DNA of 64,000 nucleotides from Squalus acanthias. Lineage: Eukaryota. The number at the start of each line of letters is the position of its first letter. The first letter of the stretch is position 1. The notes under the pieces are model-generated. The model did not search any database, had not been told where the DNA came from, and worked only from the letters and a program-made list of their open reading frames with translations. The translations under genes were made by a program, and so were the position numbers. The stretch lies in NCBI GenBank assembly GCA_030390025.1, contig CM059431.1, positions 130,078,001-130,142,000 of the forward strand, read 5' to 3'. This document shows positions 4,552-61,702 of the stretch, piece by piece.

Positions 4552-5302
4552 GGCCCGAAAATTAAACCTAATACGCGAGAGTACGCACTGTGTACTCCCG
4601 CGTATTAGATCCCGAATTGCCGGTTTCCTGCATGCACTGCGCATGCGCGGGAAATCGGCACTTCGTGAATTGCAAAGGGGGCGGTTCCTAAGTGAACTGC
4701 GTGCGCGCTACAGGTTGTGCGCACGCAGTGCACTTAGTTTTTTTTTCAGCTTTGAACGCGCAGGTAAGTGGTGAAGATTTTACACATAAAGAAAGCAGGC
4801 GTAGGACCCCCTTTTAACAAGGTAAGTAGTTAATTAAGTGTTATTTTAAATTTTTTTCAACAGGTTTATCTTTTTTAGAGACTTTAAAGAAAGGTAAGTT
4901 TATTTTTATAACTTAAAAAGATTTTAAATTTTTTCAAAAATTTAATTTTTTGCTTAAAGTGGTTAATTTATTTAACTATGCTTATTTTATTAATGTGATG
5001 GCTTTTTTTAAATTTAATTGAGGTTTAGCTGTTCTTTTGGGGGTTTGTAGTATTCATAGCTTTGACGTCAAAACTATGAATGAAAGATGGTGTGCTGCCA
5101 TTGGCTCTAACTGAATCACGTGATCCCAGAGCTCGCACGAACTAATTGCGCCTCTGGGATACGCACACACTGCGCGGTTGCAACAAGAAGAGGCTCTGAA
5201 ACTAAAGTTCGTGTGGGCCCCAAACAAAAAGGTAGGCGCGGAGTGCGATATCGCGGGGAATCCTTACCCCCGCGGGAACCATCGATGTTTAATTTCTGGG
5301 CC
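4552..5302 (+). mobile_element. MITE, family A copy 1 (PIF/Harbinger-related; 3-bp TSD ATT)
   Basis: TIRs ggcccgaaaattaaa / tttaatttctgggcc (13/15 match), ATT on both flanks, and homologous copies at 7969-8602 and 53869-54591. Confidence 0.85.
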
Positions 5303-6019
5303 ATTATGTCTATCTTTGTTGCTAATATTTCAGTTCCCTTTCTTTTGAACCCCAGTCTTGCTTGCTTGGACATTTGTTATGATTGTGCAAAAGTATCTAA
5401 AGATAATGACGCAACTAAAAAAGTAAGTCCAGAAGTTACTGTTTGCCATTTTAGCAGAGGAATAACCTTTTTGTATGATATTTCTTTGTTATTTTAACAC
5501 AGGCATGAACCTGTTTAGTTGAAATGGGTTAACACTTCTGCTAAATTGGTGGACAGAAGGTTGCAATATAAACACATTAAGTGTTAATTGGCTAATCTAC
5601 CAACAGTAATTTCTGTTTATAGAATAATTTGTGCCACTAGATTTTACTAGTTCACATGGGAAATCCTAACATTATGACGTTGATAATATGCTCAAGGCCT
5701 ATAGCTATAGTTACAGTTATACAATGTTGTAGCAACTTTTTGCAACTAGTTTTGTTGACTACTTAAAGAGAATGACCCAGAATTTGGTGTCATTATGATG
5801 CTTCTAATTGTGTTTGTGCTGTATTTAGTGACAACTGCTAAATTTTAAGCCCTTGAATAAGCAATGGCAGTGAATTTTAATGCCATGTAGCTGTGGAAAG
5901 GATGGGACATAGAAATATATATGATTGCAAAGCATCACACACTGACAGCTCACCAAAAAAAAAGCAACCATTAGGCCATGCTCCCACAAATGAACCATGA
6001 GGCTGCATGGTGGTGCCAG

Positions 6020-7699: not shown

Positions 7700-9282
7700 G
7701 AGGGAAAATACTGGAATCCATTATTAAGGAAATGGTAACAGGGCACTTAGAAAATCATAATATGATTAGGCAGAGTCAACATAGTTTTATGAAAGGGAAA
7801 TTGTATTTGACAAATCTATTCGAGTTTTTTGAAGATGTAACTAGCAGGGTAGATAAAGGGGAACCAGTGGATGTAGTATATTTGGGTTTTCAAAAGGCAT
7901 TTTATAAGGTGCCACACAAAAGGTTGTTACACAAGATAAGGGCTCATGGGGTTGGGGGTAATATATTGGCCTCTTGTTGCAACCGCGCAGTGTGTGCGTA
8001 TCCCAGAGGCGCAATTAGTTCGTGCGAGCTCTGGGATCACGTGATTCAGTTAGAGCCAATGGCAGCACACCATCTTTCATTCATAGTTTTGACAGGAAGA
8101 GCTGTCAAAGCTATGAATACTACAAACCCCCAAAAGAACAGCTAAACCTCAATTAAATTAAAAAAAAGCCTTCACATTAATAAAATAAGTATAGTTAAAT
8201 AAATTAACCACTTTAAACAAAAAATTTAAAATCTTTTTAAAAGTTATAAAAATAAACTTACCTTTCTTTAAAGTCTCTAAAAAAGATAAACCTGTTGAAA
8301 AAAATTTAAAATAACACTTAATTAACTACTTACCTTGTTAAAAGGGGGTCCTACGCCTGCTTTCTTTATGTGTAAAATCTTCACCACTTACCTGCGCGTT
8401 CAAAGCTGAAAAAAAACTAAGTGCACTGCGTGCGCACAACCTGTAGCGCGCACGCGGTTCACTTAGGAACCGCCCCCTTTGCAATTCACGAAGTGCCGAT
8501 TTCCCGCGCATGCGCAGTGCATGCAGGAAACCGGCAATTCGGGATCTAATACGCGAGAGTACACAGTGCGTACTCTCGCGTATTAGGTTTAATTTTCGGG
8601 CCTTGGATAGAGGATTGGTTAACGGACAGAAAACAGAGATTCGGGATAAACGGGTCATTTTCAGGTTGGCAGGCTGTTACTAGTGGGGTGCTGCAAGGAT
8701 CAGTGCTGGGGCCGCAGCTGTTTACAATCTATATTTCTGACTTAGATGAATGGAGCGAGTGTAATGTATCCAAGTTTGCTGATGATACAAAGCTAGGTGG
8801 GAAAGTAAGCTGTGAGGAGGACACAAAGAGGCTGCAAAGGGATATAGACAGGCTAAGTGAGTGGGCAAGAAGTTGGCAGATGGAGTATAATGTGGGGAAA
8901 AGTGAGGTTATTCACTTTGGTAGGAAGAATAGAAAAACAGAATATTTTTTAAATGGTGAAAAACTATTAAGTGTTGGTGTTCAGAGAGATTTGGGTGTCC
9001 TTTTACACGAAACACGGAAAGTTAACATGCAGGTACAGCAAGCAATTATGAAGGCAAATGGTCTGTTAGCCTTTATTGCAAGGGGGTTGGAGAACAAGAG
9101 TAAGGAAGTCTTGCTGCAATTGCACAGGGCTTTGGTGAGACCACACCTGGAGTACTGTGCACAGTTTTGGCCTCTGTACCTAAGGAAGGATATACTTGCC
9201 TTGGAGGGGGTGCAATGAAGGTTCACTAGATTGATTCCTGGGATGAGAGGGTTGTCCTTTAAGAAGAGATTGAGTAAAATGG
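7700..9282 (+). mobile_element. CR1 RT fragment interrupted by MITE copy 2
   Basis: ORFs 7732.. (FEFFEDVTSRVDKG) and 8688.. (QGSVLGP, FADDTKLGG). The reading ILA|WIE is split at 7968/8603. Confidence 0.88.
7969..8602 (-). mobile_element. MITE family A copy 2 (one end lost)
   Basis: Near-identical reverse complement of 4552-~5190. The TIR ttttcgggcc is retained at 8593-8602. Confidence 0.88.
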
Positions 9283-18600: not shown

Positions 18601-18629
18601 AGCTTGTAACACTGATTTGATGCCAGAAT

Positions 18630-19618
18630 AGGGATAATGGGCAGGTATTCTAATTGGCAGGATGTGACTAGTGGTGTCCTGCAGGGATCTGTGTTGGGGC
18701 CTCAACTATTCACAGTATTTATTAACGACTTAGATGATGGCATAGAAAGCCACATATCCAAATTTACCGATGACACAAAGATAGGCAGCACTGTAGGCAG
18801 TGTAGATAAAAGCATAAAATTACAAAGGGATATTGTTAGATTAAGTGAATGGACAAAACTGTGGCAAATGAATTTCAAAGTAGGCAAATGTGAGGTCATC
18901 CACTTTGGACCTAAAAAGGATAGAACAGGGTACTTTCTAAATGGTAAGCGAGAAACAATGGAGGTCCAAACAGACTTGGGGGTCCAGGTACATAGATCAT
19001 TAAAATGTCATGAACAGGTACAGAAAATAATCAAAAAGGCTAATGGAATGCTGACCTTTATATCTAGAGGACTAGAATACAAGGGGGTAGAGGTTATGCT
19101 GCAGCTATACAAAACCCTGGTTAGACCACACCTGGAGTACTGTGAGCAGTTCTGGGCACCACACCTTAGGAAGGATATATAGGACTTGGAGGGAGTGCAG
19201 TGTAGGTTTACCAGAATGATACCCGGACTCCAAGGGTTAAATTACAAGGAGAGATTACACAAACTAGGGTTGTATTCCCTAGAATTTAGAAGGTTAAGGG
19301 GTAATTTGATCGAAGTTTTCAAGATATTAAGGGGAACAGATAGGGTAGATAGAGCGAAACTATTTCCGCTTATTGAGGAGTCTTGGACTAGGGGACATAG
19401 TCTAAAAATTAGAGCCAGACCTTTCAGGAGTGAAATTAGGAAACTAGATCAATTTTAAATTTTAAATCTGAGATTGATAGATTTTTGTTAACCAAAGATA
19501 TTAAGGGATATGGGCCAAAGGCGGGTATATGGAGTTAGGTCGCAGATCAGCCATGATCTCATTGACTGGCAGAACAGGCACGAGCAGCTAAATAGCTTAC
19601 TCTCGTTCCTATGTTCCT
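18630..19618 (+). mobile_element. CR1 3' fragment (RT to tail)
   Basis: ORFs 18637-19182 and 19186-19458 with QGSVLGP, FTDDTKIG and RPHLEYC. Tail gttcctatgttcct. Confidence 0.9.
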
Positions 19619-20799: not shown

Positions 20800-22165
20800 C
20801 CTTTCTCATCTAACCCTATCAGCATACTCTTCTATTCTTTTCTCCTTCATGTGTTTATCTAGTTTCCCCCCACTCTTTGGGTAAAAAAGTCTCTCCTGAA
20901 TTCCCTATTGGATTTATTAGTGACCATCTTATATTTATGGCCCCTAGTTTTTGAATCTCCTGCAAGTGGAAACATCTTCTCCATGTCTACCCTATTAAAC
21001 CACTTCATCATTTTAAAGAAAGAAAGACTTGCATTTATATAGCGCCTTTCACAACCTTAGGACATAAAGAAGTCCCAAAGCGCTTTGCAGCCAATAAAGT
21101 AATTTTGAAGTGTAGTCACCGTGTAATGTAGGAAAGCGGCAGCCAATTTGATCAGATAATCTGTTTTAGTGATGCTGGTTGAGGGATAAATATTGGCCAG
21201 GACACCGGGGATAACTTCCCTGCTCTTCTTCGAAATAGTGCCATGGGATCTTTTACGTTCACCTGAGAGAGCAGACGGGGCCTCAGTTTAACGTCTCCGA
21301 AAGATGGCACCTCTGACAGTGCAGCAGTCCTTCAGTACTGCCCTGGAGTGTCAGCATAGATTTTTGTCCTCAAGTCGCTGGGGTGGACCTCTCATCTCTC
21401 AGCCTTCGCTCTTCTAGAGAAGAAAGTCCCAGCCTATTCAATCTTTCCTGATAGTTATAACCTCTCAGTTCTGATATTCTTATAAATCTTTATTGTACCT
21501 TCACCAATGCCTCTCTATCCTTTTTATAATATGGAGACCAGAACTGTGCATATACCCCAAGTGTGGTTTAACCCAGGGTCGATACAAGTTTAACATGACT
21601 TCCCTGCTTTTCAATTCTAACCCACTAGAAATAAACCCCAATGCTTGGTTTGCATTTTTTATGGTCTTATTAAGCTGCATCATTACTTTTAGTGATTTGT
21701 GTATCTGTACCTCTCGATCCCACTCATTTAGACTCTTATTATCCAAGCAGTATGTGGATTCCTTATTCTTTCTCCCAAAATGCACCACCTCATGCTTAGC
21801 TATATTGAAATTCATTTGCCAATTAAATGCCCATTCTGCAAATTTATTAATGTCTTCTTGGATTTTGTCACAATCTTCCTTTGTATTAACTATACCCCCC
21901 AATTTGGTGTCGTCCGCAAATTTAGAAATTGTACTTCCGATTCCTGAGTACACATCTTTTATGTAAATTGTGAACAACAGTGGTCCCAGCAACGATCCCT
22001 GTGGAACACCACTTCCCACCTTTTGTCAGTCTGAGAAGCTGCCCTTAAGCCCTGCTCTCTTTTTTGTTTTGTAGCCAGCTTGCTTTCCATTCTGCTACTT
22101 GTCCCCCTGACTCCACATGCTCTGACCTTAGTCATGAGTCTACTTTATCGAAGAACTTTTGAAAA
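20800..22165 (-). mobile_element. CR1 fragment interrupted by a SINE
   Basis: Minus ORF 21501-22019 GVPQGSLLGP...FADDTKLGG. The 3' part continues at 20800-21015. Confidence 0.82.
21018..21386 (-). mobile_element. Deu-SINE-like tRNA-derived SINE (SacSINE1/AmnSINE1-related), partial
   Basis: Reverse complement of the 29281-29745 SINE (aagatcccatggcactatttcgaa core; aaaggcgctatataaatgcaag tail). Confidence 0.8.
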
Positions 22166-24675: not shown

Positions 24676-25949
24676 GGCCGTGATTTTTCGGTTCGAGGCG
24701 GCTTGGGTGCAGGACAGCAGCCTTCCGGGTTCCAGTCCCGCCCTCAACGACATCAGACGCACAAACGTGATTTTGTGTCAATTGGCCTTGATAAGCCCGC
24801 CCTGCGGGCTTGCCAAGGCCAATTAAGAGGAAGCCGGTGTCAGATGACGTCAGTTGATGACATGTCATCTGCCAATTTTCTTAAAGGGGCCACGCACATT
24901 TTTTTGACAGCTGATTTCTCAGTGTTTGACAGCATTGAGGTGCTGCAAACACTGACAATGACTGTTCACAGGTGAGCACTTGCACCCAGGCTCTCCAGTG
25001 CCACCCTCCTTAGGCTAGAACAGATGGCAGCTGCAGGTGAGGTTACAGAAGTGATCTGTCACCAGTGAGAGAGGTTCTCCCAATGAGGTGGGACTACACA
25101 TACAGATCTTGTTGCCTACAGAAAAGTGTAAATGCATTAAAAATGATTTTCCCAACATTATCTTACCTCTGAAACTCACCAGTGCACCATTGGATCCTTC
25201 ACACCTCTTCTGCAGCTGTCATCAATGCAGAAACATTACAGTAGACCCACAGCACGCCACACTTACCTGGCGTGGTGTCCGGATGTTGGGAAACATAGAA
25301 ACATAGAATCTAGGAGCAGGAGTAGGCCATTCGGCCCGTCGAGCCTGCTCCACCATTCAATACGATCATGGCTGATCATCCAAATCCAGTACCCTGTCCC
25401 TGCTTTTATCCCCACAGTACACATATCCCACCCTACCCCCGTAACCCCACGTATTTAATTCCCCCTAACATATCCCATCCTATCCCCATAACCCCACATA
25501 TTTAATCCCCCCTAACACTAAGGGTCAATTTATCATAGCCAAATCAACCTAACCTGCACATTTTTGGACTGTGGGAGGAAACCGGAGCACCCGGAGGAAA
25601 CCCACGCAGACACGGGGAGAATGTGCAAACTCCACACAGACAGTCACCCGAGGTCAGATTCGAACCCGGGTCTCTGGCGCTGTGAGGCACCAGCCCGCAG
25701 TAGAACTGTCAAAATTGCAAAAAGCCTCTTAACTGCCTGTTAACAACCTGTTAACAGGCAGTTAAGTGGCTATAATCCTCTTCCCGCTGCTAGGTGTCGG
25801 GTCCATGCGCAAATTGGGGACCTGACACTTGGGAAGATTGATTGGAGGCGGGTTGACAGCGGGTTTCCGACCCGCTGTCAATCTTTGTGATTTTGCCAGA
25901 TGTCCCGTCTCCAAACCCGCCCCCACTAAGCGCCAGCAAAATTCCGGCC
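24676..25949. mobile_element. Non-autonomous Harbinger-type element (3-bp TSD TTT)
   Basis: TIRs ggccgtgatttt / aaaattccggcc with TTT on both flanks. Removing it restores the CR1 sequence GAATACTTTGCGTCT. Confidence 0.8.
25290..25695 (-). mobile_element. V-SINE (HE1-like) tRNA-derived SINE with CR1-type 3' tail
   Basis: Minus strand has a B-box (cgggttcgaatc), a V-domain (gtgtggagtttgcacattctccccgtgtctgcgtgggtttcctccgggtgctccggtttcctcccaca) and a tail matching the CR1 3' end at 1895-1986. Confidence 0.82.
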
Positions 25950-27240
25950 TTTGCGTCTGTTTTCACAAAAGAGAGGGATGATGTAGAAATTGCAATCAGA
26001 GAGGAGGAGTGTGAAATATTAGACGAAATAACCATCGTGAAAGAGGAAGTAATAAGGGGTTTAGCATCTTTGAAAGTGGATAAATCACCAGGCCCAGATG
26101 AAATGTATCTCAGACTGTTAAGAGAAGTAAGAGAGGAAATAGCAGAGGCTCTGACCATCATTTTCCAATCCTCTCTGGCTACAGGTGTGGTGCCAGAGGA
26201 CTGGAGGAATGTGGTACCATTGTTTAAAAAGGGAGAAAGGGATAGACCGAGTAATTACAGGCCAGTCAGCCTAATCTCGGTGGTGGGAAAATTATTGGAA
26301 AAAATTCTGAGGGACAGGATAAATCTTCATTTAGAAAGACACGGATTAATCAGGTACAGTCGGCATGGATTTTTTAAGGGAAGGCCGTGTCTGACTAACT
26401 TGATTGAATTTTTTGAGGAGGTAACAAGGAGGGTCGATGAGGGTAGTGCGTTTGATGTAGTCTATATGGATTTTAGCAAGGCTTTTGATAAGGTCCCGCA
26501 TGGCAGACAGGTCACAAAAGTAAAAACCCATGGGATCCAAGGCAAAGTGGCAAGTTGGATCCGAAATTGGCTCAGAGGCAGGAAACAAAGGGTAATGGTT
26601 GAAGAGTGTTTTTGTGACTGGAAGGCTGTTTCCAGTGGGGTTCCGCAAGGCTCAGTACTGGGTCTTTTGCTTTTTGTGGTATATATCGGTGATTTGGACT
26701 TGAATGTAGGAAGTATGATTAAGAAGTTTGCAGATGATACAAAAAATTGGCCGTGTGGTTGGTAGTGAGGAGGAAGGCTGTAGACTGCAAGAAGATATCA
26801 ATGGACTGGTCAGGTGGGCAGAACAGTGGCAAATGGAATTCAATCCGGAGAAGTGTGAGGTAATGCATTTGGGGAGGGCTAACAAGGCAAGGGAATACAC
26901 CATAAATGGGAGGACACTGAGAAGTGCAGAGGATCAGAGGGACCTTGGAGTGCATGTCCACAGATCCCTGAAGGTAGCAGGACAGGTAGATAAGGTGGTT
27001 AAGAAGGTATATGGGATACTTGCCTTTATTAGCCGAGGCATAGAATATAAGAGCAGGGAGGTTATGCTTGAACTGTATAAAACACTAATTAGGCCGCGGC
27101 TAGAATACTGCGTGCAATTGTGGTCACCACATCACAGGAAGGATGTGATTGCACTAGAGAGGGTGCAGAGGAGATTTACGAGGATGTTGCTGGGGCTGGG
27201 GAATTTTAGCTATGAGGAAAGATTGGATAGGCTGAGGTTG

Positions 27241-27458
27241 TTTTCATTGGAACAGAGGAGGCTGAGGGGAGACCTAATTGAGGTGTATAAAACTATGAGG
27301 GGCCAAGATAAGAGTGGATCGGAAGGACCTATTTCCCTTAGCAGAGGGGTTTTCATTGGAACAGAGGAGGCTGAGGGGAGACCTAATTGAGGTGTATAAA
27401 ACTATGAGGGGCCAAGATAAGAGTGGATCGGAAGGACCTATTTCCCTTAGCAGAGGGG
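27241..27458. repeat. 109-bp exact tandem duplication inside CR1
   Basis: 27241-27349 is repeated at 27350-27458. Confidence 0.9.
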
Positions 27459-34371: not shown

Positions 34372-37300
34372 CATAGAGTCATAGTCATAGAAAGAGGCCC
34401 TCCAGCCCATCGTGTCTGCGCCGGCCATCAAGCCCTGTCTATTCTAATCCCATTTTCCAGCACTTGGTCCGTAGCCTTGTATGCTATGGCGTTTCAAGTG
34501 CTCATCTAAATGCTTCTTGAATGTTGTGAGGGTTCCTGCCTCTACCACCCTTTCAGGCAGTGAGTTCCAGATTCCAACCACCCTCTGGGTGAAAAAGTTT
34601 TTCCTCAAATCCCCTCTAAACCTCCTGCCCCTTACCTTGAAACTATGCCCCCTGGTTATTGACCCCTCTGCTAAGGGGAAAAGTTCTTTTCTATCTACCC
34701 TATCTATGCCCCTCATAATTTTGTACACCTCAATCAGGTCCCCCATCAGCCTTCTCTGCTCTAAGGAAAACAACCCCAGCCTGTCCAGAATCTCTTCATA
34801 GCTGAAACGCTCCAGCTCAGGTAACATCCTGGTGAATCTCCTCTCCACCCTCTCCAATGCAATCACATCCTTCCAATAGTGTGGCGACCAGAACTGCACA
34901 CAGTATTCCAGCTGTGGCCTAACTAGTGTTTTGTACAGCTCCATCATAACCGCCCTGCTCTTATATTCTATGCCTCGGCTAATGAAGGCAAGTATCCCAT
35001 ATGCCTTCTTAACCACCTTATCTACCTGTTCTGCTGCCTTCAGGGATCTATGTACATGCACACCAAGGTCCCTCTGATCCTCTGTCCTTCCCAGGGTCCT
35101 ACCATTCATTGTGTATTCCCTTGCCTTGTTAGTCCTCCCAAAATGCATCACCTCACACTTTTCAGGGTTAAATTCCATTTGCCACTGTTCTGCCCATCTG
35201 ACCAACCCGTCTATATCGTCCTGTAGCCTGAGGCTTCCCTCCTCGTTATTTACCACTCCACCAATTTTCGTGTCATCTGCGAACTTACTGATCATACCTC
35301 CTACATTCATATCTAAATCATTAATGTACACTACAAACAGAAAGGGACCCAGCACCGATCCCTGCGGTACACCACTGGACACAGGCTTCCAGTCACAAAA
35401 ACAACCTTTGACCATCACCCTCTGCCTTCTGCCACCAAGCCAATTTTGGATCCAATTTGCCCTGGATCTCATGGGCTCTTACCACCTTGACCAGTCTCCC
35501 ATGCAGGACTTTGTCAAAAGCCTTACTGAAGTCCATGTAGACTACAACAACTGCACTATCCTCATCCACACACCTAGTCACACCCTCGAAAAATTCAAAC
35601 AAATTGGTTAGACATGATCTCCCCCTGACAAAGCCATGCTGACTATCCTTGATTAATCCTTGCCTCTCCAAGTGGAGACTAATTCTGCCCCTCAGAATTT
35701 TTTCCAATAATTTCCCTACCACTGATGTTAGGCTCACTGGCCTGTAATTCCCTAGTTTATCCCTACTACCCTTTTGGAATAATGGTACTACGTTAGCTGT
35801 CCTCCAGTCCTTTGGCACCTCCCCTGTGGCCAGAGAGGTTCTAAAAATTTGTGTCAGAGCCCCTGCAATCTCCTCCCTTGCCTCACACAGTAGCCTGGGA
35901 TACATCTCGTCTGGGCCTGGGGATTTATCCACTTTTAAGCCCGCTAAAACCGCTAGTACCTCCTCCCTCTCAATGCTAATTTGTTCAAGTATATCTCAAT
36001 CCCCCTGCCTGATTTCTATGCCTACATCGTCCTTCTCCATAGTGAACACAGATGCAAAATATTAATTTAAAACCTCACCTACATCTTCCGGCTCTACACA
36101 CAGATTGCCACTTTGGTCCCTAATGGGCCCTACTCTTTCCCTGGTTATCCTCTTGCCCTTAATATACTTATAAAACATCTTGGGATTTTCCTTTATTTTG
36201 CCCGCCAATGTTTTTTCATGCCCCATCTTCGCTCTCCTAATTTCTTTTTTAATACTCCCCTGCACTTTCTATACTCCTCTAGTGCTTCCACTGTTTTTAG
36301 TCCTTTGTATCTGCCAAAAGCCTCCCTTTTTTTCCTAATCCATTCTTGTATATCCTTGACATCCAGGGTTCCCTGGACTTGTTGGTCCCACCCTTGACCT
36401 TTTACGGGAACATGTTGGCGCTGTACTCTCTCTATTTCCTTTCTGAATGACTCCCACTGCTCTGATGTGGATTTTTCTACAAGTAGCTGATCCCAGTCCA
36501 CTTTGGCCAGATCCTGCCTTATCATATTAAAATCAGCCTTCCCCCAATTTAGAACCTTTATTTCCGGTCCATCTTTGTCCTTTTCCATGACTACCTTAAA
36601 TCTCACCGAATTACGGTCACTGTCACCAAAATGCTCTCCTACTGACACTTCTACCACTTGCCCAGCTACATTCCCTAGAATTAGGTCCAGTACCGCCCCC
36701 TCTTGTAGGACTTTCTACATGCTGGCTCAAAAAGCTCTCCTGGATGCACTTTAAGAATTCCGCACCCTCTAAGCCTTTCACACTCTGACTATTCCAGTTA
36801 ATATTGGGGAAGTTGAAATCCCCTACTATTATTACCCTATTATTTCTACACTTCTCTGAGATTTGCCTACATATCTGTTCCTCTATCTCCCCCTGACTGT
36901 TTGGGGGCCTGTAGTACACTCCCAGCAAAGTGCTTGCCTCCTTTTTGTTTTTAAGTTCTACTCATATGGCCTCATTAGAGGAACCTGCTAAAATATCATC
37001 CCTCCTTACTGCAGTAATTGACTCCGTGATTAATATTGCGACACCCCCTCCCTCCTTACTGCAGTAATTGACTCCGTGATTAATATTGCGACACCCCCTC
37101 CTCTTTCACACCCCCCTCTGTCTCGCCTGAAGATTCTATACCCCGGAATATTGAGCTGCCAGTCCTACCCCTCCCTCAACCATGTCTCTGTGACAGCAAC
37201 AATATCATACTCCCATGTGTTCATCAACACCTTCAATTCATCTGCCTTACTCGTAAGACTCCATGCATTAAAATAAATGCCATCCAGCCTTGCCATACTC

Positions 37301-38050
37301 CCTTGTGCCATTACATATATGCTCTGCCTTCCAGACTGACTCTGTGCATCACCCCCTACTATAGCTCCACTCCGTATCCCATCCCCCTGCCAAGTTAGTT
37401 TAAACCCCCCCCCCAACAGCACTAGCAAACCTCCCTGCAAGGATGTTGGTCCCATTCCGGTTCAGGTGCAACCAGTCCGACTTGTACAGGTCCCACCTTC
37501 CCCAGAAACATACCCAGTGGTCCAGGAAACTAAAGCCCTCCCTCCTGCACCAACTCTTTAGCCACGCATTCATCTGCTCTATCCTCCTATTCCTATACTC
37601 AGTAGCATGTGGCACCAGGAGTAATCCAGAGATTACAACCTTTGAGGTCCTTCTTTTTAATCTGCTACCTAGCTCCCTAAATTCTTGTTGCAGGACCTCA
37701 TCCCTCTTTCTACCTATGTCGTTGGTACCAATGTGAGCCACAACCTCTGACCGTTCCCCCTCCCTCTTCAGAATGCCCTGCAGCCATTCAGTGACATCCT
37801 TGACCCTGGCACCAGGGAGGCAACATACCATCCTGGAGTCACGTCTGGAGCCGCAGAAACGTCTGTCTGCACCCCTCACTATTGAGTCTCCTACCACTGT
37901 TGCCCTTCCACTCTTCCTCCCCCCTTGTGCAGCTGAGCCACCAACAGTGCCGTGAACTTGGCTCTGGCAGCACTCCCCAGAGGAACCGTTACTTTCACCG
38001 TTTTTCAACACAGAAAAACAGTTGTTGAGTGAGATGCACCCTGGGGCTTT
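34372..38050 (-). mobile_element. Long CR1 LINE: ORF1 esterase (SGNH) domain, APE endonuclease, RT and 3' tail; frameshifted
   Basis: 37400-38011 has VVGDSIVR, HIGTNDIG and DWLHLN. 36623-37455 has VAVTETWL, GVYYRPP and VGDFNFP. 34444-35932 has RT motifs. Confidence 0.95.
37001..37100. repeat. 50-bp exact tandem duplication inside the CR1 endonuclease region
   Basis: 37001-37050 equals 37051-37100. Confidence 0.9.
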
Positions 38051-39192
38051 CCTTTAAATAAATTAATTCTCCTTATCTCCCCACCGGTTCTCTTGCCAAT
38101 TATCTTAAATCTGTGTCCTCTGGTTATCAAGCCACCTGCCAGTGGACACAGTTTCTCCTTATATACTCTATCAAAACCCCTCATAATTTTGAACACCTCT
38201 ATTGAATCTCCCCTTAACCTTATAACCTTATATGCTCGAAGGAGAACAATCCCAGCCTCTAGTCTCTGCACAGAACCAACATCCCTCCTCCCTGGTATAA
38301 TTCTGGTAAATTTCCTCTGCACACATCCTTCCAAAAGTGTGGTGCCCAGAATTGGTCACAGTAGTCTAGCTGAGGGCTAACCAGTGATTTATAAATGTTT
38401 AGCAGAGCTCCATTGCTTTCGTACTCAATGCCTATATTTATAAAACCGAGGAGCCCATGTCCTTTTTTAACAGCTTTGTCAACTTGTCCTGCTACCTTCA
38501 AAGATTTGTGTATGTAAACCCCAGGTCTTTCTGTTCCTGCATACCCTTTAAAATTGTGCCATTTAGTTTATATTGCCTCTTCTTATTCTTACTTGCAAAA
38601 TGCATTACTTCTCAAACTCTGCATTAATTTTCATCTGCCAGAGGTCTGCCCATTTCACCAGCCTACATGCTCCTGAGGTCTGCTACTATCCTCCTCACTG
38701 TTTTCTACATTTCCAAGTTTTGTGTTATCTGCAAACTTTGAAATTGTGCCCCCTATATCCACGTCCAAGACATTAATATATATCAAAAAGAACAGTGGTT
38801 CTAATACCAACCCCTGGGGGACACCACTGTATACTTCCCTCCAGTCTGAAAAACAACCATTCACCACTAATATTGCTCTTTGTCTCTTAGCCAATATGGC
38901 TTAGATTCAGAGAACAAAGCCTGTTAAATTAATGAAATGAATTAAAAATAAATGCATTTGAGGTCATTGACTTCACTGGAGCCAGTTGGACTCGGTGCTA
39001 TATTTCAAGTATAAATGATAAGCTTCCCCCTGGAGTGTAACCACTTATTAAGGGATGCTGTTGTGGCGGGGAGGGGGCATCACCTAGCAGCAGGTTGGAG
39101 CTCCATTGCTTCATTAATAAACTAAAACTAGATGTAAAGACAAGTCCTATGAAATCACTCAAATTGTGTAAATGTCATTTGAATTATTTGGT

Positions 39193-47701: not shown

Positions 47702-49819
47702 AAAATTTAGCTGCCATCAGAACAACAAGAATTTATATTCATAGAGTGGCTTTAATGTAAAAAAAAATGTCCCAAGGCATTTCATAGAATAAGTTTATGG
47801 AAAACAGATGCCAAGCCAGAAAAGACTAGTCAAAGTGATGGGTTTTGAGATCTCAAAGGAAGTGGAATAGGTGGATAGGTTTAGGCAGGGAATTCCAGAG
47901 TGAACATACTGTTGTGCCTGAAACTGGTGTGAATTGAACAATGCAACGGGAATCTACGCCCAAAAACATTGGCCTGAGGCTCGCTGGATATTGGGCCTCG
48001 GGCCTCATCTGCATGAAATCGACAAGCTGCATTGAGTCGCCCAATTGGTGCACACAGCAGCGCCTTGCAACAATCAGCTGGCTCAAACACCGAAATGGTG
48101 AGCCTGGGTCAACAGCGGCCCACAGTAATGTTGTGGAACCAAGAGGAGCTCTCTTTGTCCTCCTGTCTCCACATAAACATAAGTATAAAAATGTGAATTT
48201 ACTTTTTTGTCGGTGGCCTGCAGCAGTTCCTTTAGGCCGGTGTGAATTCAGAAAAACAAAGCACGCTTTGTTTGATGAATATCTGACGGGGCCCTAAAAC
48301 AGGCGTTAGGACCTTGATTAGCATATCCAAGGTGCTGTTCTCTGTGGGGGTCTACAAATATTGAAACAGATGTGGGAATTCCCTGTCCTAACTTCTGAAA
48401 AAGTGCCATCTAACCAAAGGAAAATAATGCTATTACTGCAGATTTTTAAAATTAATTGACAGCAATAGAAATAACTGGGCGTGTCAATAAATATAGAAAA
48501 ATACAGAATTCAAATGACTTGGTGGAGCTTCTGGAAACCCCTCATGGACCCCTGTTTGAAAACCTGCTTTAAAAGAACAGTTTGTGAAATTCACATTGTG
48601 CTGAGTTTTACGTTATATTTGCATTTTGGGAATTGTGACTACATGCAGTTCATTAAAAGAGACTTAAATATGTACTTGAATATGTAAGTCAGTAAAACAA
48701 AAATATACTGTAGGAGTAAACTGCGCCTGATTGCTTTGTTTTGTCATGTTTCTGTAGAATAATGATCATTCATGACATCCATATGCTTTAGTCTCCGTGA
48801 GATTAATTGCCGAATGATTGGATCTGTAAGTATGGTTGAGAAGTATTTCTAAATGGCCTGTAATTAGCCAAAGCAAAACATAGTTCCTTTTTGTTTTTCA
48901 TTATGATTCATTGGATTAGCAAACGTAAAGGATCATGGGGTCTTTCTCTGTTATGTTAAGCTGGTTACATACTTTGTCATCTGGATATTATCCAGCAGCT
49001 CAGTCATGAGAGCATTAATGCATTGTGTGGAAATGCAATCAACCCCCAGTAAACAAATGAAAGGCAGTGATGCTTTATAATTCACTATCCACAACAGTAT
49101 CAACAACAGAATAACTGGTCATTCATTTCATTGCTGTTTGTGGGATCTTGTTGTGTGCAATTTGGCTGCTGCATTTGCCTACACAATTGCATTAACTGCA
49201 CTTCAAAAATAATTTGTTGGATGTGAATTTTCCCCCCAGATATTGTGAGGTTACAATGTTAAGGTATTAAATAAGTAAATGCAAGTTAGTTATTTTTTTC
49301 CTCCTTTTCTTTATTTCTGTCAGCTGTTCATGAACTCCAAAATAACATTTTACTTTTGTTTGTGGAAGGGTCAAATTGTGTCTTTGTGTATAAAGGTATT
49401 TCAGTTTGTGTGTTTGTGAAAATGATTTGAATGCGAACTGGAGGGTGAATTTACTAAGGTTTTGAACTATGATTTCACACAAAAGTGAATCAAGCTAGGA
49501 GAAAGAAACAGTGATTAAGATTAGACTGTATTTAATGTCCTGAGGCAGAGACACAGAGACAAACACAGAGTGGAATCTTTATATTTAGGCAGTTATGGTG
49601 ATTAATTAAGGAAAATAGTATTTATTCATTTTCTTCCGAGCACTAATCAAAAAACACTTAATTCAATGTCTTTGATAGATTTCTTACAAATTGACCAGCA
49701 AGTTGTGCCAGACCTCAAGAAACTTCCCTTGCAGCTAATGCTGCCAGATCCTGTGCCCTCTCCCTCACTGTGCTGACAGACCCCAGGATTCCTCACTGAG
49801 CCAACCCCTACAACTACTG

Positions 49820-50350
49820 TCATGTATCCTCACTTTCCTCTCCCTTTCCCTCTCCTCTGTTCCCTCCCCTCCTTTCCTCTCACCCCTCCTATCATCTTCT
49901 TTTCCAACCCCTTCTATCTACCTCCTCTCCTCTCAATCCTCCTATCCACCTCCTCTCCTCTCACCCCTCCAATCTCCCTCCTCCACTCTCAATCCTCCTA
50001 TCAATCTCCACTCCTCTTGCCCCTTCTGTCCCCACCACTCATCTCACCTTCCTCTCCACTCCTTTCCTCCCTCTCTTCTCTATCCTTCTCCTCTCCTCAT
50101 CTCATGCTCTCCTCCCACCTTTTCACCGCCTTTCTCACCCCCCACCTACTCTCCCCCTCATCCCATCCCCAGTCATCTTCTCTCCCTGATTATTTCTCCC
50201 TTCTCCTCTCCGCCTCTCATATCCTCCTCTCCCCTTCCCCCCCTTCTCCTCCACCTCTCCCTTACCCTCTCCTCTCTCTTACCCTCTCTTTCTTTTCCCT
50301 CCCATCTACCCTCTGTCCCCTTCCCTACCTTGTTTCACATATCTCCCTCT
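49820..50350. repeat. CT-rich low-complexity tract
   Basis: About 530 bp of almost G-free pyrimidine-rich sequence. Confidence 0.9.
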
Positions 50351-51043
50351 AAACTTTCATGATCTGCAAAGTGCCCTCGGTCTTGACTCCCCATGTTAAA
50401 TGCCACAGAAGATTGACTCGATGTTATAAAATATCCCCTGAATCACCATGCTAACCACCACAGGAGATTTTATAGCATTTATTTTAAGTTTTGAACACCT
50501 AGTTAATGTTTCGCAACTAGTTTTTTTTAGTACCAAGTGATTTTGGTGCCAGGGTCATTTAGCCTATTGAAAGCTTTAGCCTATTGAAAGCAAAAAAAAA
50601 TGTCCTCAAAATTTTCACAAGCTTCAGGGAATCGTAATTTCACAAAGGATCAACAAGTTCAATTGATTTGAAAAGTATTGAAATATTGCAGTTATAAGAA
50701 ATATGGGACCTGCCTTATGAGTGAACATTAAGAGACACTAATAGTTACTGCATTACATACTTTATTGTGTATCTATTGGCTATGAATGCCAGGAGTCAAA
50801 ATCACAGAATGCTGCACCCAGCCCCATGTCTTACACTAGATCAAAAGTCAGAACCCAGTATGCTTAGTCGCATGTTGTTCATTACTGTATAATGCACTGG
50901 TCAGATCACACCTTGAGTAATGGTTTGGGTTCTAGTCATGGAGATATAATGACAGCCAGGCCCAGGAAGGAGCTCTGAGAAGAGCTGTGAGACTGATCCG
51001 TAGTATCCGAGGCCTGAGTTATGACGAGAGACTGAAGAAACTA

Positions 51044-52650
51044 GGGCTAGAAATTCTTTATAGCCAAGAAATGGGTAGTGATTAGACTAAAAATGGTTAA
51101 GTAGGGCCAAGTGAAAATCGTCTAGGCTGCACGCAAAACTCATCCTCATTAAAATGATTGCAGTTATGATTCTCGTCTAAAAACCCAAGCTCATTGGCAT
51201 TACACTGAAAAGATGGACCAAAATCGGGTGTCGTCTAAACTCAAGTAATGATTGCCACCGGCTTTTTTCACTACTTAAAGGGGAGGTTCATTGATGCTGC
51301 AGCACCTCATTCTCAGCATTGTTGGGTGTGCAGCTGCCTCAACAACCATAAGAAGAAGGACAAGGAGAAGGAGCACTTATTTACAGATCCTGATGGCAGA
51401 TCGCTGCCCCAGGGAGAGAACCCCGAGGTTTTTGGATGAAGCTTTGGAGGCATTGGTTTTAGCGGTGGAGAGAAGGCGGGCGGTCCTGTACCTGCCAACT
51501 GGCAGGAGGCCCTCACCACAAGTCTGCCGGACTATGTGGCGGGAGCTGGCACACCATGTCACGGGCAGCACTGTGGTCCCCAGGACTCACACCCAGTGCA
51601 GGAAGAACTTTAACGAGCTCACAATGGTGGTCAGGGTGAGTGAAGGCTTCAACAAATACTACATACCACCATCTGTACCACAAGCTTCACACACTGCTCA
51701 ATGTACCACACCTCCAGCACTCACCCACCAACAATCTCTACCTAGCAACACCCACAACCACATTTCACACTTTGTACACAATGATAGCTATTCAACCATG
51801 GCAGGCATAAGGGTCATTAGTTATTAGAATTCATGTGATATGTTTATAGATAAATTTATTAAGTGTCTTTGGAATATTTTGTGGTCTCTCTCATTTCACC
51901 TTTTTGCCCAGGATGACGCTGTGATACACCATGAGACAGGGATTGTATGATGGGGATGTGGTGAGCTACAGGGATCTGGGGTTTCATTCATGTGAATCAG
52001 TGTCTGATGAGCCGATTACAGACAGCCCGTCCGGAAGGCCGATTGTCTTGCTGCCTCCGTCCTCCCTGCTGTTCCTCTTCCTCCTCCTCTTCATTGTCCT
52101 CCTCGTACTCTTCCTCCTCACCCTCCTCTGCCTTGTCGTCCTCCTGAGTTAATCTCGCAGCCCCAGGACTGTGAAGAAGTGTTGTGAGCAGAAGCCTTTA
52201 ACAAATAATGGGTGACTTCTGCACTTGAATCAACGCTCCCTGTCGCCAAAAAAACTTGAAATAACTAAAGAAAGCTGTTTCAGTTGCAGGAAGTAGCAAA
52301 CCGACACTGAAACTGCAGAACCATGTTAGTTGCAGCTGATTGGGGATGGTGGCTCTTAATATCGCTGCTGCAGCCTGCTTCCTGCTGGTAGTCGCCAGCT
52401 CTCCCTGTCGTTGTTCTGTGCTGTCGTTAAGGTAAGTGACTATAACGAAGTTGGGAAATCGGACATCCAGTGAGCGTTGCACACTCACTGATGTCACGAG
52501 CTCCATGATGGCGAGATCTCTGGCGATCAAGTTTACCGGCAGCGCTACCGGCAACACCGATAATGGCGTGTGGTGCTGGAACCGTCAACGGCATTTTAGC
52601 GCCATCTTGTAGCGCTAATGTGTGGTGCAAACCACACAAATTTCTAGCCC
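51044..52650 (+). mobile_element. Internally deleted Harbinger element
   Basis: TIRs gggctagaaatt / aatttctagccc with flanks cta / ata. Open Myb/SANT exon at 51393-51635 (+). Transposase acidic C-terminus (...GRAVCNRLIRH) on - at ~51990-52145. Confidence 0.82.
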
Positions 52651-52926
52651 ATAGGCTTTTAGCCTTGAAAGAAGCTATCACAGAGGTAAATGTTATAGAA
52701 TGTCTCTAAACTGAAGCATGAGAATAAGAGGACACAGGTTTAATCCAATAAATGGCAAATTTAGAACTGATGTCAGGAAGTGCTTCTCACACAGTGATTG
52801 ACACATGGAATGGAGCTTCCAAGTAGAGTGAAGGGAAAACCCTGAAATTGTGTCAGGAATAAATGGATGTTGCGATAAGACAACTGTAGGATTTTGTCTA
52901 GAAGAATGAGCTGAGATGGGCTGAAT

Positions 52927-55292
52927 TGAAGGGATAATTACAAGTCCTAGCCCTTTTGGACTACCCCAGATCAGGCGTATTCCCCAGACGTTTACCCTCT
53001 ACTAAAGTTAGCAGTAGCCGGATCCCATAAGACGCTTAATTGGGTCTAAAGGTCAGACTACCTCTCCCTAAAGGAAAGAAACGGTCTAAAGATGTTACCG
53101 TGCTCCAGATAGTACTTTTAATAAGTTTAACTAGACTGTAACCTTCCGGATATTATAAGGGTCCGGAATACCCCCCAGAATTCTGCAACTCCTTTGAGTG
53201 TACAGAAATTGAGTTTGCAAGATGATACAGAAATGCTCTTTTGAGACTATTCTAAAAATATATAGATTTATTACCGAACCGACATTCAGTTTAACATTAT
53301 GGCAATCGCAACTTTAATCGTTCAAAATACAAATAGCTTACATTCTTATTCTCAGAGATCCTTATTCTCAAATCTTAACTTCATTACATTTCCACATTTC
53401 TACTTATTTCTTAATCCAGAATATCCACCAAAATCAAATAAGAGTACCTTGATCCCCGAGACTCAAAAGTTAAAAACTTACAGAGAATGTCTGTTAAGTT
53501 GAGAAACGCTTGACTTCTCAGCGACTTCTGACTTTTCTGTCTGAAAAGCTTTATTTTTATATCTTTTCTTAGGTGGCTTATTCTTTGAAGTTTTCGTGTT
53601 TGTGTAAGCTTAATTGTATTAAGTCTTTCTTTGCTGACTTTGTTCTATCCTTTATTGTCATTTCAGCTGTCAGCTTTTAGACTTGTGTCCTGTTTAGGTG
53701 TTTCCAAAACCATCATAAACACAATGACAGCAATGGTTTCTGTTTGATGCAATTCTTATCGAAGTCTTTCTATTGAATTTCTAATACTACTTTAACTGGT
53801 TATTAGACGTTGTGACTCCGTGGTATTCTAAGAACAATGTAATTGCTTGGTGCATCCATTGAAGTAATGGGCCGAAAATTGATCCCGGGACGCGAGAGTA
53901 CGCACTGCATACTCTCGCGTATTCCCACTCCAATTGCCGGTTTTCTGCATGCCCTGCGCATGCGCTGAAAACCGGCAATTGCTCTTCCGAAAAGGGGGCG
54001 GGGCCTGGGTGCATCGCGTGCGCGCTACAGGCTGCGCGCACGCTGTGCACTTCATGCTTTGGACGCGCAGGTAAGTAGGGAAGATTTTGGAAATGTAAAA
54101 AGGAGGAGTAAGACCCGCTTTTAAGAAGGTAAGTAGTGAATTAAGTATTTTTTTGAATTTTTTTTTACAGGTATATCTTTTTTATAGACTTTAAAGACAG
54201 GCAAGTTTATTTTTATAACTTTTTAAAAATTTTTAAATTTTTTCAAAAATTTAATTTTTTATTTAAAATGGTTAATTTAATTAACTATACTTATTTTATT
54301 AATGTGATGGTTTTTTTTTTTAATTTAATTGAGGTTTAGCTGTTATTTTGGGGGGGGTGTAAGATTCATAAATTATGAATGGAAGATGGTGTGCTGCCAT
54401 TGGCTCTAACTGAGTCACGTGATCCCACAGCTCGCACGAATTCACTACGCCGCTGGGATACGCAAGCCCAGCACAGCTGATGTCTGGAACATCAAGTTCG
54501 TGCGAGCTGGATCAGAAAAAGCATAAGCGAGGTGAGACATCGCGGGGAAGGCTTACCCCCGCGGGAACAGAGCGAGATCAATTTCTGGGCCAATATTTTC
54601 AAAGTCGTCTTGTTTGTGTACTTTTTACAACTTGTAAATTAAAACCACTTCTCTAGTATCTTTATGCATTTCTAATTTACTTCAATTGGTTTTTATCAGA
54701 CCTTGGGACTCCATCTTTCAAGCTTAACATTAAAACTATTTGTTCAGCAGGCATTTCTTTTACTTGATGTCATATCTTCAAAGCCTTCTGTAGGTATTAT
54801 ATTTACAATATGTAAATTGAAAACACTTCTCTCAGTGTTTACTTGTTTTCTAGCTAGCTCAATTGGTTGCATATTTAATCGTGTTTCCTGTCTTTAAGTT
54901 TAACATAAAACTATTTTACGACAGGTATTTCTTACTTGATGTCATTCTTTTAAAGGCACTTGGTTTTTTTAATGTTCTGTGCACCTGTTCGACGTGTTAG
55001 ATTATAACACTTGAGTAATTCCATTGTTTTGATTCCAATGTCCAGACGCTCTGGAAGCAAACCTTGCTTTATCAAAAGGGCTTGTTTTAGCATTTTTAAC
55101 TAATTCCCATATCAAAGCTTGTGTTCACAGCTTTGTGTTAACAAACCATCTTATCTCATAAGCCTGTATTGTGCCTACAGCCTGTGTCGCCGAGGCTTTC
55201 AGACTTTTAAACCCAGTATGTCATTTATTAATAATTTCAGAAATCTGTTTTTAGTATCGTGTATTTTTCTGAATCCTGGCTATTCCTTCACA
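52927..55292 (-). mobile_element. Solo LTR of an endogenous retrovirus/LTR element (~1.64 kb without the nested MITE), foamy-like layout
   Basis: TG...CA termini and a 4-bp TSD GAAT interrupting a CR1 3' end. Minus-strand TATAAAA (53555-53561), GTAAGT (53476-53481) and AATAAA (53267-53272). Internal ~175-bp repeat in the U3-like part. Confidence 0.68.
53869..54591 (+). mobile_element. MITE family A copy 3 (diverged; TSD AAT)
   Basis: TIRs gggccgaaaattgatc / gatcaatttctgggcc, AAT on both flanks, colinear with 4552-5302. Confidence 0.87.
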
Positions 55293-57781
55293 GAATGGCC
55301 TTCTTCACTTTGTATTGATCTTGTTGGGCTGGCTCCTTTGCATTTAGTCAGAATAGAAGAGTGTCACAGTTTTCAAGAGACTCTTCAGTATGAGATAACC
55401 TACAACAAAAACTGTAAGAACTGTGAAATACTTGATGGCTAACACCTGAGCATACTTTGTCCAGAGTACTTTGAATACAATATTACTCCCCAGAGTCTGT
55501 CATCAGAATAATTGGTATAATTGCAACTCATTTTAGATATATTTAGCTACTCAACCAGTTGCTATTTGAAATAAATGTTGCAACATTTTGGGGGCATTGC
55601 AGCTTTAAGAAGCTGGAGAAACACAATGTCCCTGCGTTTTATTTTTTCCTAAAAATACAGTAAAATAAGAACTGTAAATATGGAAAGCACGTTTTCACAT
55701 TGTGATGAATTGATTTTTCCTGTGCCCCTATTTTCTCCAACTAAAAGCCAGAGTTCTGGAACACCGCATACTCAGTACCCACAACAGCTTCAATAATGAG
55801 GTTGTGATATGCGGTGAAGCATCTCCGATGTATATCCAAGTGAGGTAGAATAAAGTTTTCTTTTTATACAAGTAAATCTTAGTAACATTTAATAAAAATA
55901 AAACATGTGGATAAATCAGGTTTTTCTTCATTTATATTTTCCATAAACTCATCAGTTTGTAAAGGTGTTGATTTTTTAGAATTATCCCCAGTTGAAAACC
56001 TACATAAAATAATGCAGTTTTACATGTCAACTTAAAATACATATTTCATTGTTGCTCTAACTTCTTGTCCCTTGATTGGAGGCATAGTTTTCAATATGAC
56101 ATTGTGCTTTTATGGAGGCTGAGGTCTTTTCTGACATCTCGGTGCAGTACAGCTCAACATTTCTTAAAGCATGTTATCCAATTTGTATTTTACTTTTTAT
56201 ACTTTATTTCAAAATGTTTCACATTGAAAGACAATGAGTGATAAAAAGCAAAATGACTGCCTATATATCAATGCGAATGTGAGAAAATAATCTAACACCC
56301 GAACATGGTGTTAAAAGTGTTGCGTCCTTTCAATAATAAAGTTCGGAATGGTATTGTAATGCTGTCAGCCTAATTATACCTCTGGCGAATATACAGATGT
56401 ATGACTAGTGGTAAACATCAAAGTTTGGTTTGGGAGGATTTACGTTGAATAGAATGAAGCACAGCTTCCTGATATGTTGTCAGGATATGCTAAAGTTCAG
56501 ATGGTGTTATGAGAAAATGATGGACTGTGCAGTGCCTTTCATGCTGTCACTGGAATTCGACATCAAATGCCTGCTCCAGTCTACCTCTAACCAACAGTTT
56601 TTTAAGCATCAAACATGGGAACAATGAGGTATTGAGCTATATTGAGAAGTTAGGTTTCAGTGAATTACCTTTTCTCTTTACGAAATTACTGGTAAACTTT
56701 GAGTAATCACAATGTTGGATGACATAGTTATCAAGCAGATTAAATCTGAGACAACACTTTCTTGATGAGCATGTATGTAAAATTAAGAAAAGCAGCCGAA
56801 CCCTTCACTACAAACTGCCACTGTAACAAACTTTTCTTCTGATATAACTGCTCCATTATAGCCAGTGGATGAGCTCAAACCTCATTCAGACAGACTTATT
56901 TTAAGAACAACTGCTGAGCTTATCTAATTGGGTTTACAATAAGTATTTGGCTGTTAAAAAATGTATGTTTATATACATAAATAGAGAAAGTAGTATCTAA
57001 AATGTACATGCCTTCTTCCTTCATGGCCTTAATCTGTTACTCTGCCCTTGCTGGGGCCCCAACTTGACTGCAAGTAGCAAGTTCTGACAGGCATTTAGAC
57101 ATAGCGAGGTCATGGTAGGTTCACTGCTACATAGTGAACTGTAAAACTGATTGCACAAGGTACCAGACAACTGACAAAATATGTTTGATCTTGTAGCAAG
57201 GGTTAAAGCTACTGTTTACAAAAACTCAGCCAGTTACTTCAGATTAGGTTATTGCAATTTAAAACTATAATGGATGTTACTTGTTTATTGCACGGTAAGG
57301 TAAATTAAAGATAGGCGCAATTGTCTGCATAGGATGGTTGATAAATAATTCATGCTTCCATGCTCATTATTGTTAATATTGTTATGTAATGTCTTTGGGC
57401 ATGCAGCTTTACCTTATAAAATAAAATTATATTTTCAGCCAGTTCCATTTTCAGGAGAACACCATGACATAAATTGGCAAGCATCGCGCATTTAGTTATG
57501 CACCAAACATGCCTTCTAAACTTATTATTGAGTTCAACTTGTAACCAAACATATGTCTAAAAGAATTCTTAAAGGACTACCTATTGACATGAATACAATG
57601 TATACTCATTTCAAATACAGTCATTTAAAATTCTTGTTGAGTGTGGTTTATAGGGAATGTGAAAAGGCAATCTATAAGGAAGGAAAGTGGAATTCAGATT
57701 CCAGGTTCATCTCTGATGCTGTGAGGTTACATTTCTTTCAGCCTGAATATCAAATTTTGTCGAAGTATTTATTTCTAGAGA

Positions 57782-61007: not shown

Positions 61008-61702
61008 AGACATTTCAGAATATCATTCGCCATGCAGAGAACAACACAAAGATGCTTTTCAGAACTACATACCGGAACATGGCCTTTCAGACAGCGGCAC
61101 CAATTCGAGAACTCTTTACTGATGTTGCACTCTTTGTTTTTGGCTCGGAGATAAACGTCGATGAATTTGTTAATAGATTTTTTGATAGTCTCTTTCCGTT
61201 GGTCTATAATCATCTAATCAATCCTGCCCTCACTGACATCTCCCCGGAATTTGCAGAGTGTGTACGGATGGCAAGGAAGGACCTAAACCCATTTGCTCAT
61301 GTTCCAAAATTAATAACAAGTCAAATGTCAAAATCTTTAATGGCGAGTCATATGTTCTTGCAGGCTCTAAATTTAGGAATTGAAGTTATTAACACAACTG
61401 ATCACTTGCAGTACACCAAAGAATGCAGCAGAGCTCTGCTGAAGATGCAGTACTGTTCCCATTGCCAAGGCTTGACTGATCGTAAGCCATGCATGGGCTA
61501 TTGCCTGAATGTGATTAGAGGATGTCTTGCTAATATGGCAGAAATTGATCCACACTGGCGGGAATACATCAGGTCGCTGGAGGAACTGTCAAATGGCATT
61601 CAGGGAACTTATGATATGGAACAAGTTTTGCTGAATCTCCACTCATTAGTGAATGATGCGATTATGAATGCACAAATCAATGGGCCAAAGTTGTCAGCAA
61701 TG
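61008..61702 (+). CDS. GPC5: Glypican-5 internal coding exon (equivalent to exon 3; phase 1 start, phase 0 end)
   Basis: Acceptor ttatccttttattgcag| and donor ATG|gtgagt bound 695 bp. The translation EFVNRFFDSLFPLVYNHLINP...FLQALNLGIEVINTTD...ECSRALLKMQYCSHCQG...KPCMGYCLNV.RGCLA has the glypican Cys pattern with GPC5-type rather than GPC3-type residues. A GPC5-like paralogue cannot be excluded. Confidence 0.92.

Follow-up and report, generated by a model that had tools for sequence, protein, structure and literature searches.

Which kind of mobile element interrupted a LINE tail near the GPC5a gene of this cartilaginous fish, and from which lineage did it come? A sequence-only reading of the 64-kb window, i.e., the whole stretch of DNA that was analysed here, had proposed that an ORF-less block at this locus is the solo LTR of a foamy-like retrovirus.

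Insertion site, nested MITE and host gene

The block at 52927–55292 is a 2366-bp insertion with TG...CA ends on the minus strand. GAAT lies directly outside both ends (52923–52926 on the left and 55293–55296 on the right, plus strand) and gives a 4-bp target-site duplication. The interrupted sequence is the 3′ end of a LINE, presumably of CR1 type, with its left half at 52886–52926 on the plus strand and its right half at 55293–55320. Seven intact copies of this 3′ motif were counted in the window against 0.04 expected, and the flanks on both sides of the insertion aligned in register with six of the seven. The ends, the duplication and the split motif show a clean insertion into the LINE tail, as the sequence-only reading had described it.

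Other LINE remnants in the window were located at 37403–38053, 34447–35995, 25857–27387, 7702–9215, 18616–19179 and 21504–22025, and included RT fragments and a GDSL-esterase ORF1 (PF13472). A near-complete CR1/L2-type element with RT fragments and the GDSL-esterase ORF1 lies on the minus strand around 34.1–38.1 kb. The region 49600–50400 is a low-complexity tract with a strong pyrimidine skew (GC skew down to −0.84).

The insertion is itself interrupted by a MITE at 53869–54591, which has 14–15-bp terminal inverted repeats and a 3-bp duplication (AAT/AAT) and which we take to be probably of Harbinger type. This nested copy was 78% identical to sister copies at about 4548–5307 and 7995–8602 in the window. 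The copy at about 4548–5307 is flanked by an ATT duplication and the nested copy by AAT, and the family seems to target AWT. The MITE entered the LTR after the LTR's own insertion. Its start had been placed correctly before, whereas the end proposed at 54594 takes in one AAT copy, and the MITE proper ends at 54591. Without the MITE, the element's own sequence amounts to 698 + 942 = 1640 bp, in agreement with the earlier estimate of about 1640 bp; the two parts were analysed separately. The adjoining region 51044–52650 carries an inverted-repeat motif pair like that of the nested MITE around a Myb/SANT-like frame at 51279–51824 (PF13873, E 0.0003), and it probably derives by deletion from a transposon of Harbinger type.

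A coding exon was located on the plus strand at 61008–61702, 5.7 kb downstream of the LTR element. It covers about residues 104–337, and its identity of 94% to four sharks and 91% to the elephant shark assigns it to GPC5a. The LTR element is antisense to this gene. We infer that it lies within the long upstream GPC5a intron; this placement is indirect because the upstream GPC5a exons (residues 1–103) fall outside the window. The minus orientation, antisense to GPC5 in a cartilaginous-fish host, was supported as first proposed.

Predicted LTR anatomy and the TATA-donor-poly(A) layout

Read on the minus strand, 52927–55292 is probably a solo LTR with the nested MITE inside it. The 5′ part, at 54595–55292, is an A-rich, U3-like region without an ORF of 60 aa, and a search for a hidden ORF in U3 found none. 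A tandem pair with a unit of about 178 bp, which the sequence-only reading had not mentioned, spans 54593–54949 on the minus strand, and each unit contains the CRE-like motif TGACATCA. The two copies (54593–54778 and 54772–54949) are 72% identical and likely represent an enhancer duplication with a putative regulatory function; no third copy of the U3 repeat exceeded the shuffled background. Near the 5′ end of U3, the segment 55133–55232 folds well as minus-strand RNA (z −3.2), as one of 25 windows tested.

The promoter-proximal motifs named by the sequence-only reading were confirmed by a motif scan. The TATA box at 53555–53561 contains the only TATAAA in either LTR part with both strands counted (at 53561), while AATAAA occurs four times in these parts, always on the minus strand (55229, 53656, 53555 and 53272). 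The candidate splice donor GTAAGT lies on the minus strand at 53476–53481, 80 nt past the TATA box; it is the single match to GT[AG]AG[AT] in the promoter-side part (at 53481) and stands between the TATA box and the last AATAAA. This last AATAAA, at 53267–53272, is the likely poly(A) signal; it lies 209 nt past the donor, and 346 nt separate it from the LTR end. The AATAAA at 53555 was rejected as poly(A) signal, since it overlaps the TATA box and leaves no R. The predicted start of R spans 53440–53535, with a putative start site near 53532 and a long hairpin, and a U5-like region ending in TCA occupies 52927–53250, with a provisional boundary to R; all limits of U3, R and U5 given here are predictions.

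Searches for coding and structured sequence gave little. None of the four frames overlapping the element was matched by Pfam, tblastn with ORFs taken from 58 loci of retroviruses or retroelements yielded nothing convincing in the element (best E 0.013), and Rfam, run on the promoter-side part, returned one chance match (E 0.21).

The succession of a TATA box and a poly(A) signal on one strand is that of an LTR, and we consider the element very probably a solo LTR. ERV solo LTRs in general are single LTRs left between target-site duplications by LTR–LTR recombination, and this element is no different in kind. A non-autonomous DNA element or a composite insertion with coincidental motifs is the least probable of the explanations weighed here. 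It would agree with the result that no second copy of either LTR part was found within the 64-kb window, and with an inverted repeat that is only short (10 bp). It does not account for the TG...CA ends, the strand-biased set of TATA and AATAAA motifs, the rare layout of these motifs or the U3-type tandem repeat; furthermore, the MITE-type elements of the window have longer inverted repeats.

Taking the element as a solo LTR, we compared the spacing of its motifs with that of 16 exogenous foamy LTRs (Spumaretrovirinae, e.g., L010, L016 and L023; the RT of L010 was named as foamy). In 16/16 of them the donor stands 78–87 nt past the TATA box and ahead of the poly(A) signal AATAAA, and the distance here is 80 nt. 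None of 19 other retroviral LTRs (0/15 evaluable and 0/4 further ones) had this layout. Six control LTRs showed a deltaretrovirus-like layout, which suggests their identity, with the donor 146–175 nt past the TATA box and AATAAA upstream. L059 (U3 part only) and L093 (without the TATA region) were left out of the control set, L061 duplicates L084, and 11 of 24 tRNA-Pro loci were left out as lacking a full upstream LTR; a scan for fish viruses with a tRNA-His PBS gave 0 matches. The layout arose in 11/3000 shuffles on the same strand, in 15/3000 on either strand (about 0.5%) and in 3/254 tiles of the window, although the shuffle figure overstates the weight across the whole scan, because the layout was first chosen by eye. 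A looser spacing window was matched by about 1% of shuffles and 4/400 tiles.

PMC3694450, in the part available, describes a donor ahead of the poly(A) signal within R as a peculiarity of foamy viruses and shows that the 5′ poly(A) site is suppressed when U1 binds there. By motif and spacing, the element has its major donor in that position, so the sign that the sequence-only reading had taken from a donor near +50 in R held up. The literature searched, with most subscription papers outside it, yielded no description of a donor placed in R for foamy-like ERVs of fish or sharks, and the term 'splice donor' is absent from the accessible text of PMC5210030.

The surroundings of the donor resembled those of foamy LTRs in part. 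The candidate donor matches the consensus at 7/11 positions (6–8 in foamy donors), and the stretch from donor to poly(A) signal is C-poor and T-rich, as in foamy LTRs. The predicted start of R is structured in both; in the element it folds better than shuffles (z −2.6 to −3.1), but since three foamy controls gave z −0.8 to −1.6, this fold favours the foamy-like reading only weakly. In contrast, position −1 of the donor is T here and G in 16/16 foamy donors, and the distances are longer than in mammalian foamy viruses (donor to signal 209 against 47–143 nt, signal to end 346 against 153–186 nt), with R and U5 each about twice the mammalian length. Homology in R-U5 was not detectable; nhmmer with a profile of 16 R-U5 regions from mammalian foamy viruses found no match in the element (best E 58), and none is expected at such depth.

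The length of the LTR points in the same direction as the layout. With 1640 bp the element falls within the 1059–1760 bp of the foamy control LTRs, as had been claimed for an unusually long foamy LTR, and within the approximately 950–1700 nt expected of foamy viruses and foamy-like ERVs. Published mean LTR lengths, as far as the sources were available, are 809 for epsilon, 554–630 for gamma and 572–695 for fish Gypsy elements. In a class I ERV, the expected arrangement is an LTR under about 900 nt whose poly(A) signal lies close to its 3′ end, with the donor past the PBS; the element is arranged differently. Based on the layout and the length, a foamy-like lineage is likely but not established, with a probability of roughly 0.6.

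LTR ends and competing lineages

The LTR ends were less informative on lineage. A 4-bp duplication, which had been read as a foamy sign, is present and typical of foamy viruses, but it is also common to gammaretroviruses (PMC5210030, in part), and its lineage specificity did not stand. The likeness of the element's first 16 bases to prototype foamy virus was likewise real (L010, L017 and L027) but not diagnostic. An equal score was reached by 59/3996 random TG-starts, by 78/1944 TGT-starts and by the non-foamy L011, and on these grounds the likeness was rejected as a foamy marker. L011 falls outside the foamy RT clade, has a tRNA-Lys PBS, and yet carries LTR ends (1–16) almost identical in motif to those of prototype foamy virus; the case cautions against reading lineage from LTR termini. 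A foamy-like origin therefore stood as the best reading through layout and length, and not through the duplication or the 5′ end.

The terminal inverted repeat, whose 2-nt offset had also gone unmentioned before, reaches 9/10 matching positions only if the outer TG is not counted, against 4/10 in register. U5 ends in TCA, whereas ACA was found in 14/14 foamy LTRs with intact starts, and inverted repeats of foamy viruses are mostly in register. With TGT...TCA and the 2-nt offset, the element departs from the TGT...ACA att ends in register looked for in foamy viruses and foamy-like ERVs, which are typical of class III but not universal. That foamy viruses leave their U3 end untrimmed is a disputed proposal (PMC1180852, in the part available); such an end could be the source of the extra outer TG, but it was not counted as support because foamy repeats are mostly in register.

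The inner ends TGAAGG/CCTTCA resemble gammaretroviral att sites (control LTRs L081, L083 and L087; table in the accessible part of PMC3601003), and the inner ends fit the gamma type while the outer TG does not. These ends would suit a class I (epsilon- or gamma-like, ERV1) shark solo LTR in which the outer TG is untrimmed or slipped and the donor arose by chance. Such an origin would also agree with the 4-bp duplication, with the foamy-like 5′ end of the non-foamy L011 and with the presence of epsilon-like ERVs in the elephant shark, one of which has a start similar to the element's (PMC4422223 supplement, in part). The class I control LTRs measure 434–555 bp where complete; their poly(A) signal lies no more than about 180 nt from the end, the 80-nt layout occurs in none of them, and the elephant-shark epsilon-like LTR measures about 640 bp by eye in the portion of the supplement available. 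We regard a class I origin as unlikely.

The offset of the repeat is also sensitive to where the element is taken to end. With the boundary at 52927–55290, the inverted repeat matches at 9/10 in register, and the flanks CTGAAT and CAGAAT form a 6-bp duplication (right copy 55291–55296) with one mismatch. BEL target-site duplications measure 5–6 bp. This boundary is a possible form of a Gypsy or BEL/Pao solo LTR in which one base of the duplication has changed. TG...CA ends, TATA and AATAAA are common to Gypsy LTRs, and Gypsy is the commonest zebrafish LTR group (830/968 classified) in the partly available surveys. Nevertheless, the boundary needs one specific transversion, and the 4-bp reading is preferred because no base change is required. 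Fish Gypsy LTRs average only 572–695 bp, and Sushi elements carry AATAAA close to the 3′ end, according to the accessible parts of the sources. The donor spacing, for which the controls were all retroviral LTRs, would be left unexplained as well. A Gypsy or BEL/Pao origin appears quite unlikely.

A third alternative is a non-foamy class III or snakehead-type solo LTR that also has its donor inside the LTR. In XtERV-S, a class III element, a donor is predicted within the LTR and the TATA box stands far from the poly(A) signal (PMC8278194, in part), and snakehead-type ERVs occur in the elephant shark, as stated in the portion of the source available. XtERV-S-related copies show 5-bp duplications and 705-bp LTRs in which about 290 nt lie between the TATA box and the donor that follows it (available part of PMC8278194), and the elephant-shark snakehead-type LTR, judged by eye from the accessible sequence, has AATAAA about 75 nt from its end. 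We consider this origin very unlikely.

For the favoured foamy-like lineage, published foamy-like ERVs (FLERVs) offered further comparisons, all drawn from the accessible parts of the papers. The newt elements NviFLERV-1 and -2 (PMC5512871) have a 4-bp duplication as here, and by eye their donor lies about 565–600 nt and their AATAAA about 320–340 nt from the LTR end, compared with 555 and 346 nt in the element. They differ in an LTR of 960 bp and in lacking a clear TATA box at 80 nt upstream of the donor, and these donor and AATAAA motifs were not annotated by the authors in the portion of PMC5512871 considered. The teleost AciFLERV and AliFLERV have LTRs of 1498 and 1634 bp, near the 1640 bp found here, and 4-bp duplications, and the AliFLERV LTR ends in TTCA like the element; by eye, their TATA lies about 1000 nt from the end, without an 80-nt donor (PMC5512871 supplement). 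Foamy-like ERVs have already been published from cartilaginous fishes, namely the elephant shark CmiFLERV (PMC5512871) and the catshark ERV-Spuma-Sca (PMC10699275), which share the host group and the 4-bp duplication with the element, and foamy solo LTRs have been published from birds, e.g., ERV-Spuma-Cbo (PMC6955096). Two hallmarks of foamy viruses, GGG at the PPT border and a Lys/Asn/Thr tRNA PBS (PMC5210030, in part), lie outside a solo LTR. GGG stood directly before the 3′ LTR in 11 of the 12 foamy loci examined, and the remaining one had no usable repeat. Foamy viruses and foamy-like ERVs are further marked by features of the internal region, namely an RT that groups with spumaretroviruses, an internal promoter, accessory genes and a Gag lacking the Cys-His box.

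Copies, proposed history and meaning

Copies of the promoter-side LTR part were sought in sequencing runs with 98 words. Among the 20 runs listed, 16 (seven studies, six coded organisms and one unlabelled) held 0.20–0.47 of the words, none held half, and four with shares under 0.2 were not used; one or two of the seven studies may be the window's own source. No RNA run holding these words was among the 20 listed. Several of the word-holding runs comprise only 81–255 million letters. Shark genomes measure some gigabases. The presence of the words in such small runs implies either a repeated sequence or libraries that are not whole-genome, and suggests, from word counts, that the promoter-side part belongs to a multi-copy family. 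If all missing words were private changes, the element would be about 2.4% away from its nearest sampled kin.

Exact LTR-end patterns gave 0 matches in viral contigs and 0 in metagenome contigs. An RT-based metagenome scan returned ten loci, none of which matched the element by blastn, and the seven loci placed in a tree all fell outside the foamy clade. The metagenome loci L049 and L051–L053 are non-foamy, retrovirus-like and form their own RT clade, with long frames of gag, pol and env size (554, 323, 1035 and 529 aa in L052). In the accessible parts of the catshark/lamprey and elephant-shark supplements, two 8-base end motifs of the element occurred only at internal-looking places (two of the three places of one motif were viewed). 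No description of the element's LTR family was found in the literature searched, which excluded most subscription papers and the repeat databases.

The following history would fit these results. A retrovirus, probably foamy-like, would have integrated into an old LINE tail in a GPC5a intron and produced the 4-bp duplication, and LTR–LTR recombination would then have removed the genes of the presumed provirus and left the solo LTR. While the virus was active, RNA would have started near 53532 under control of the TATA box, and the donor at about +51 would have served the spliced messages. As happens in prototype foamy virus, U1 snRNP bound to this donor may have kept the poly(A) signal further along the 5′ LTR silent; the signal would have been used from the copy in the 3′ LTR. 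The present copy is likely inert or nearly so. Because it is antisense, neither its donor nor its poly(A) signal would appear in the GPC5a transcript, and this likely allowed the copy to persist.

A single solo LTR matters little: remnants of this sort are frequent, and publications on foamy-like ERVs of cartilaginous fishes already exist. A wider interpretation is possible, though we hold it only tentatively and think it somewhat doubtful: a long-LTR, foamy-like family of sharks may keep the mammalian layout with the donor at +51 before the poly(A) signal, U1-dependent poly(A) control may be as old as the split between cartilaginous and bony vertebrates, and the offset inverted repeat may be the trace of a U3 end left untrimmed. 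Should a foamy-like pol turn up between paired copies, the element would gain a modest wider meaning: the unusual poly(A)-site control of foamy viruses would already have been present in the shark branch, and TATA-donor spacing would be usable as a marker for orphan LTRs without detectable sequence homology.
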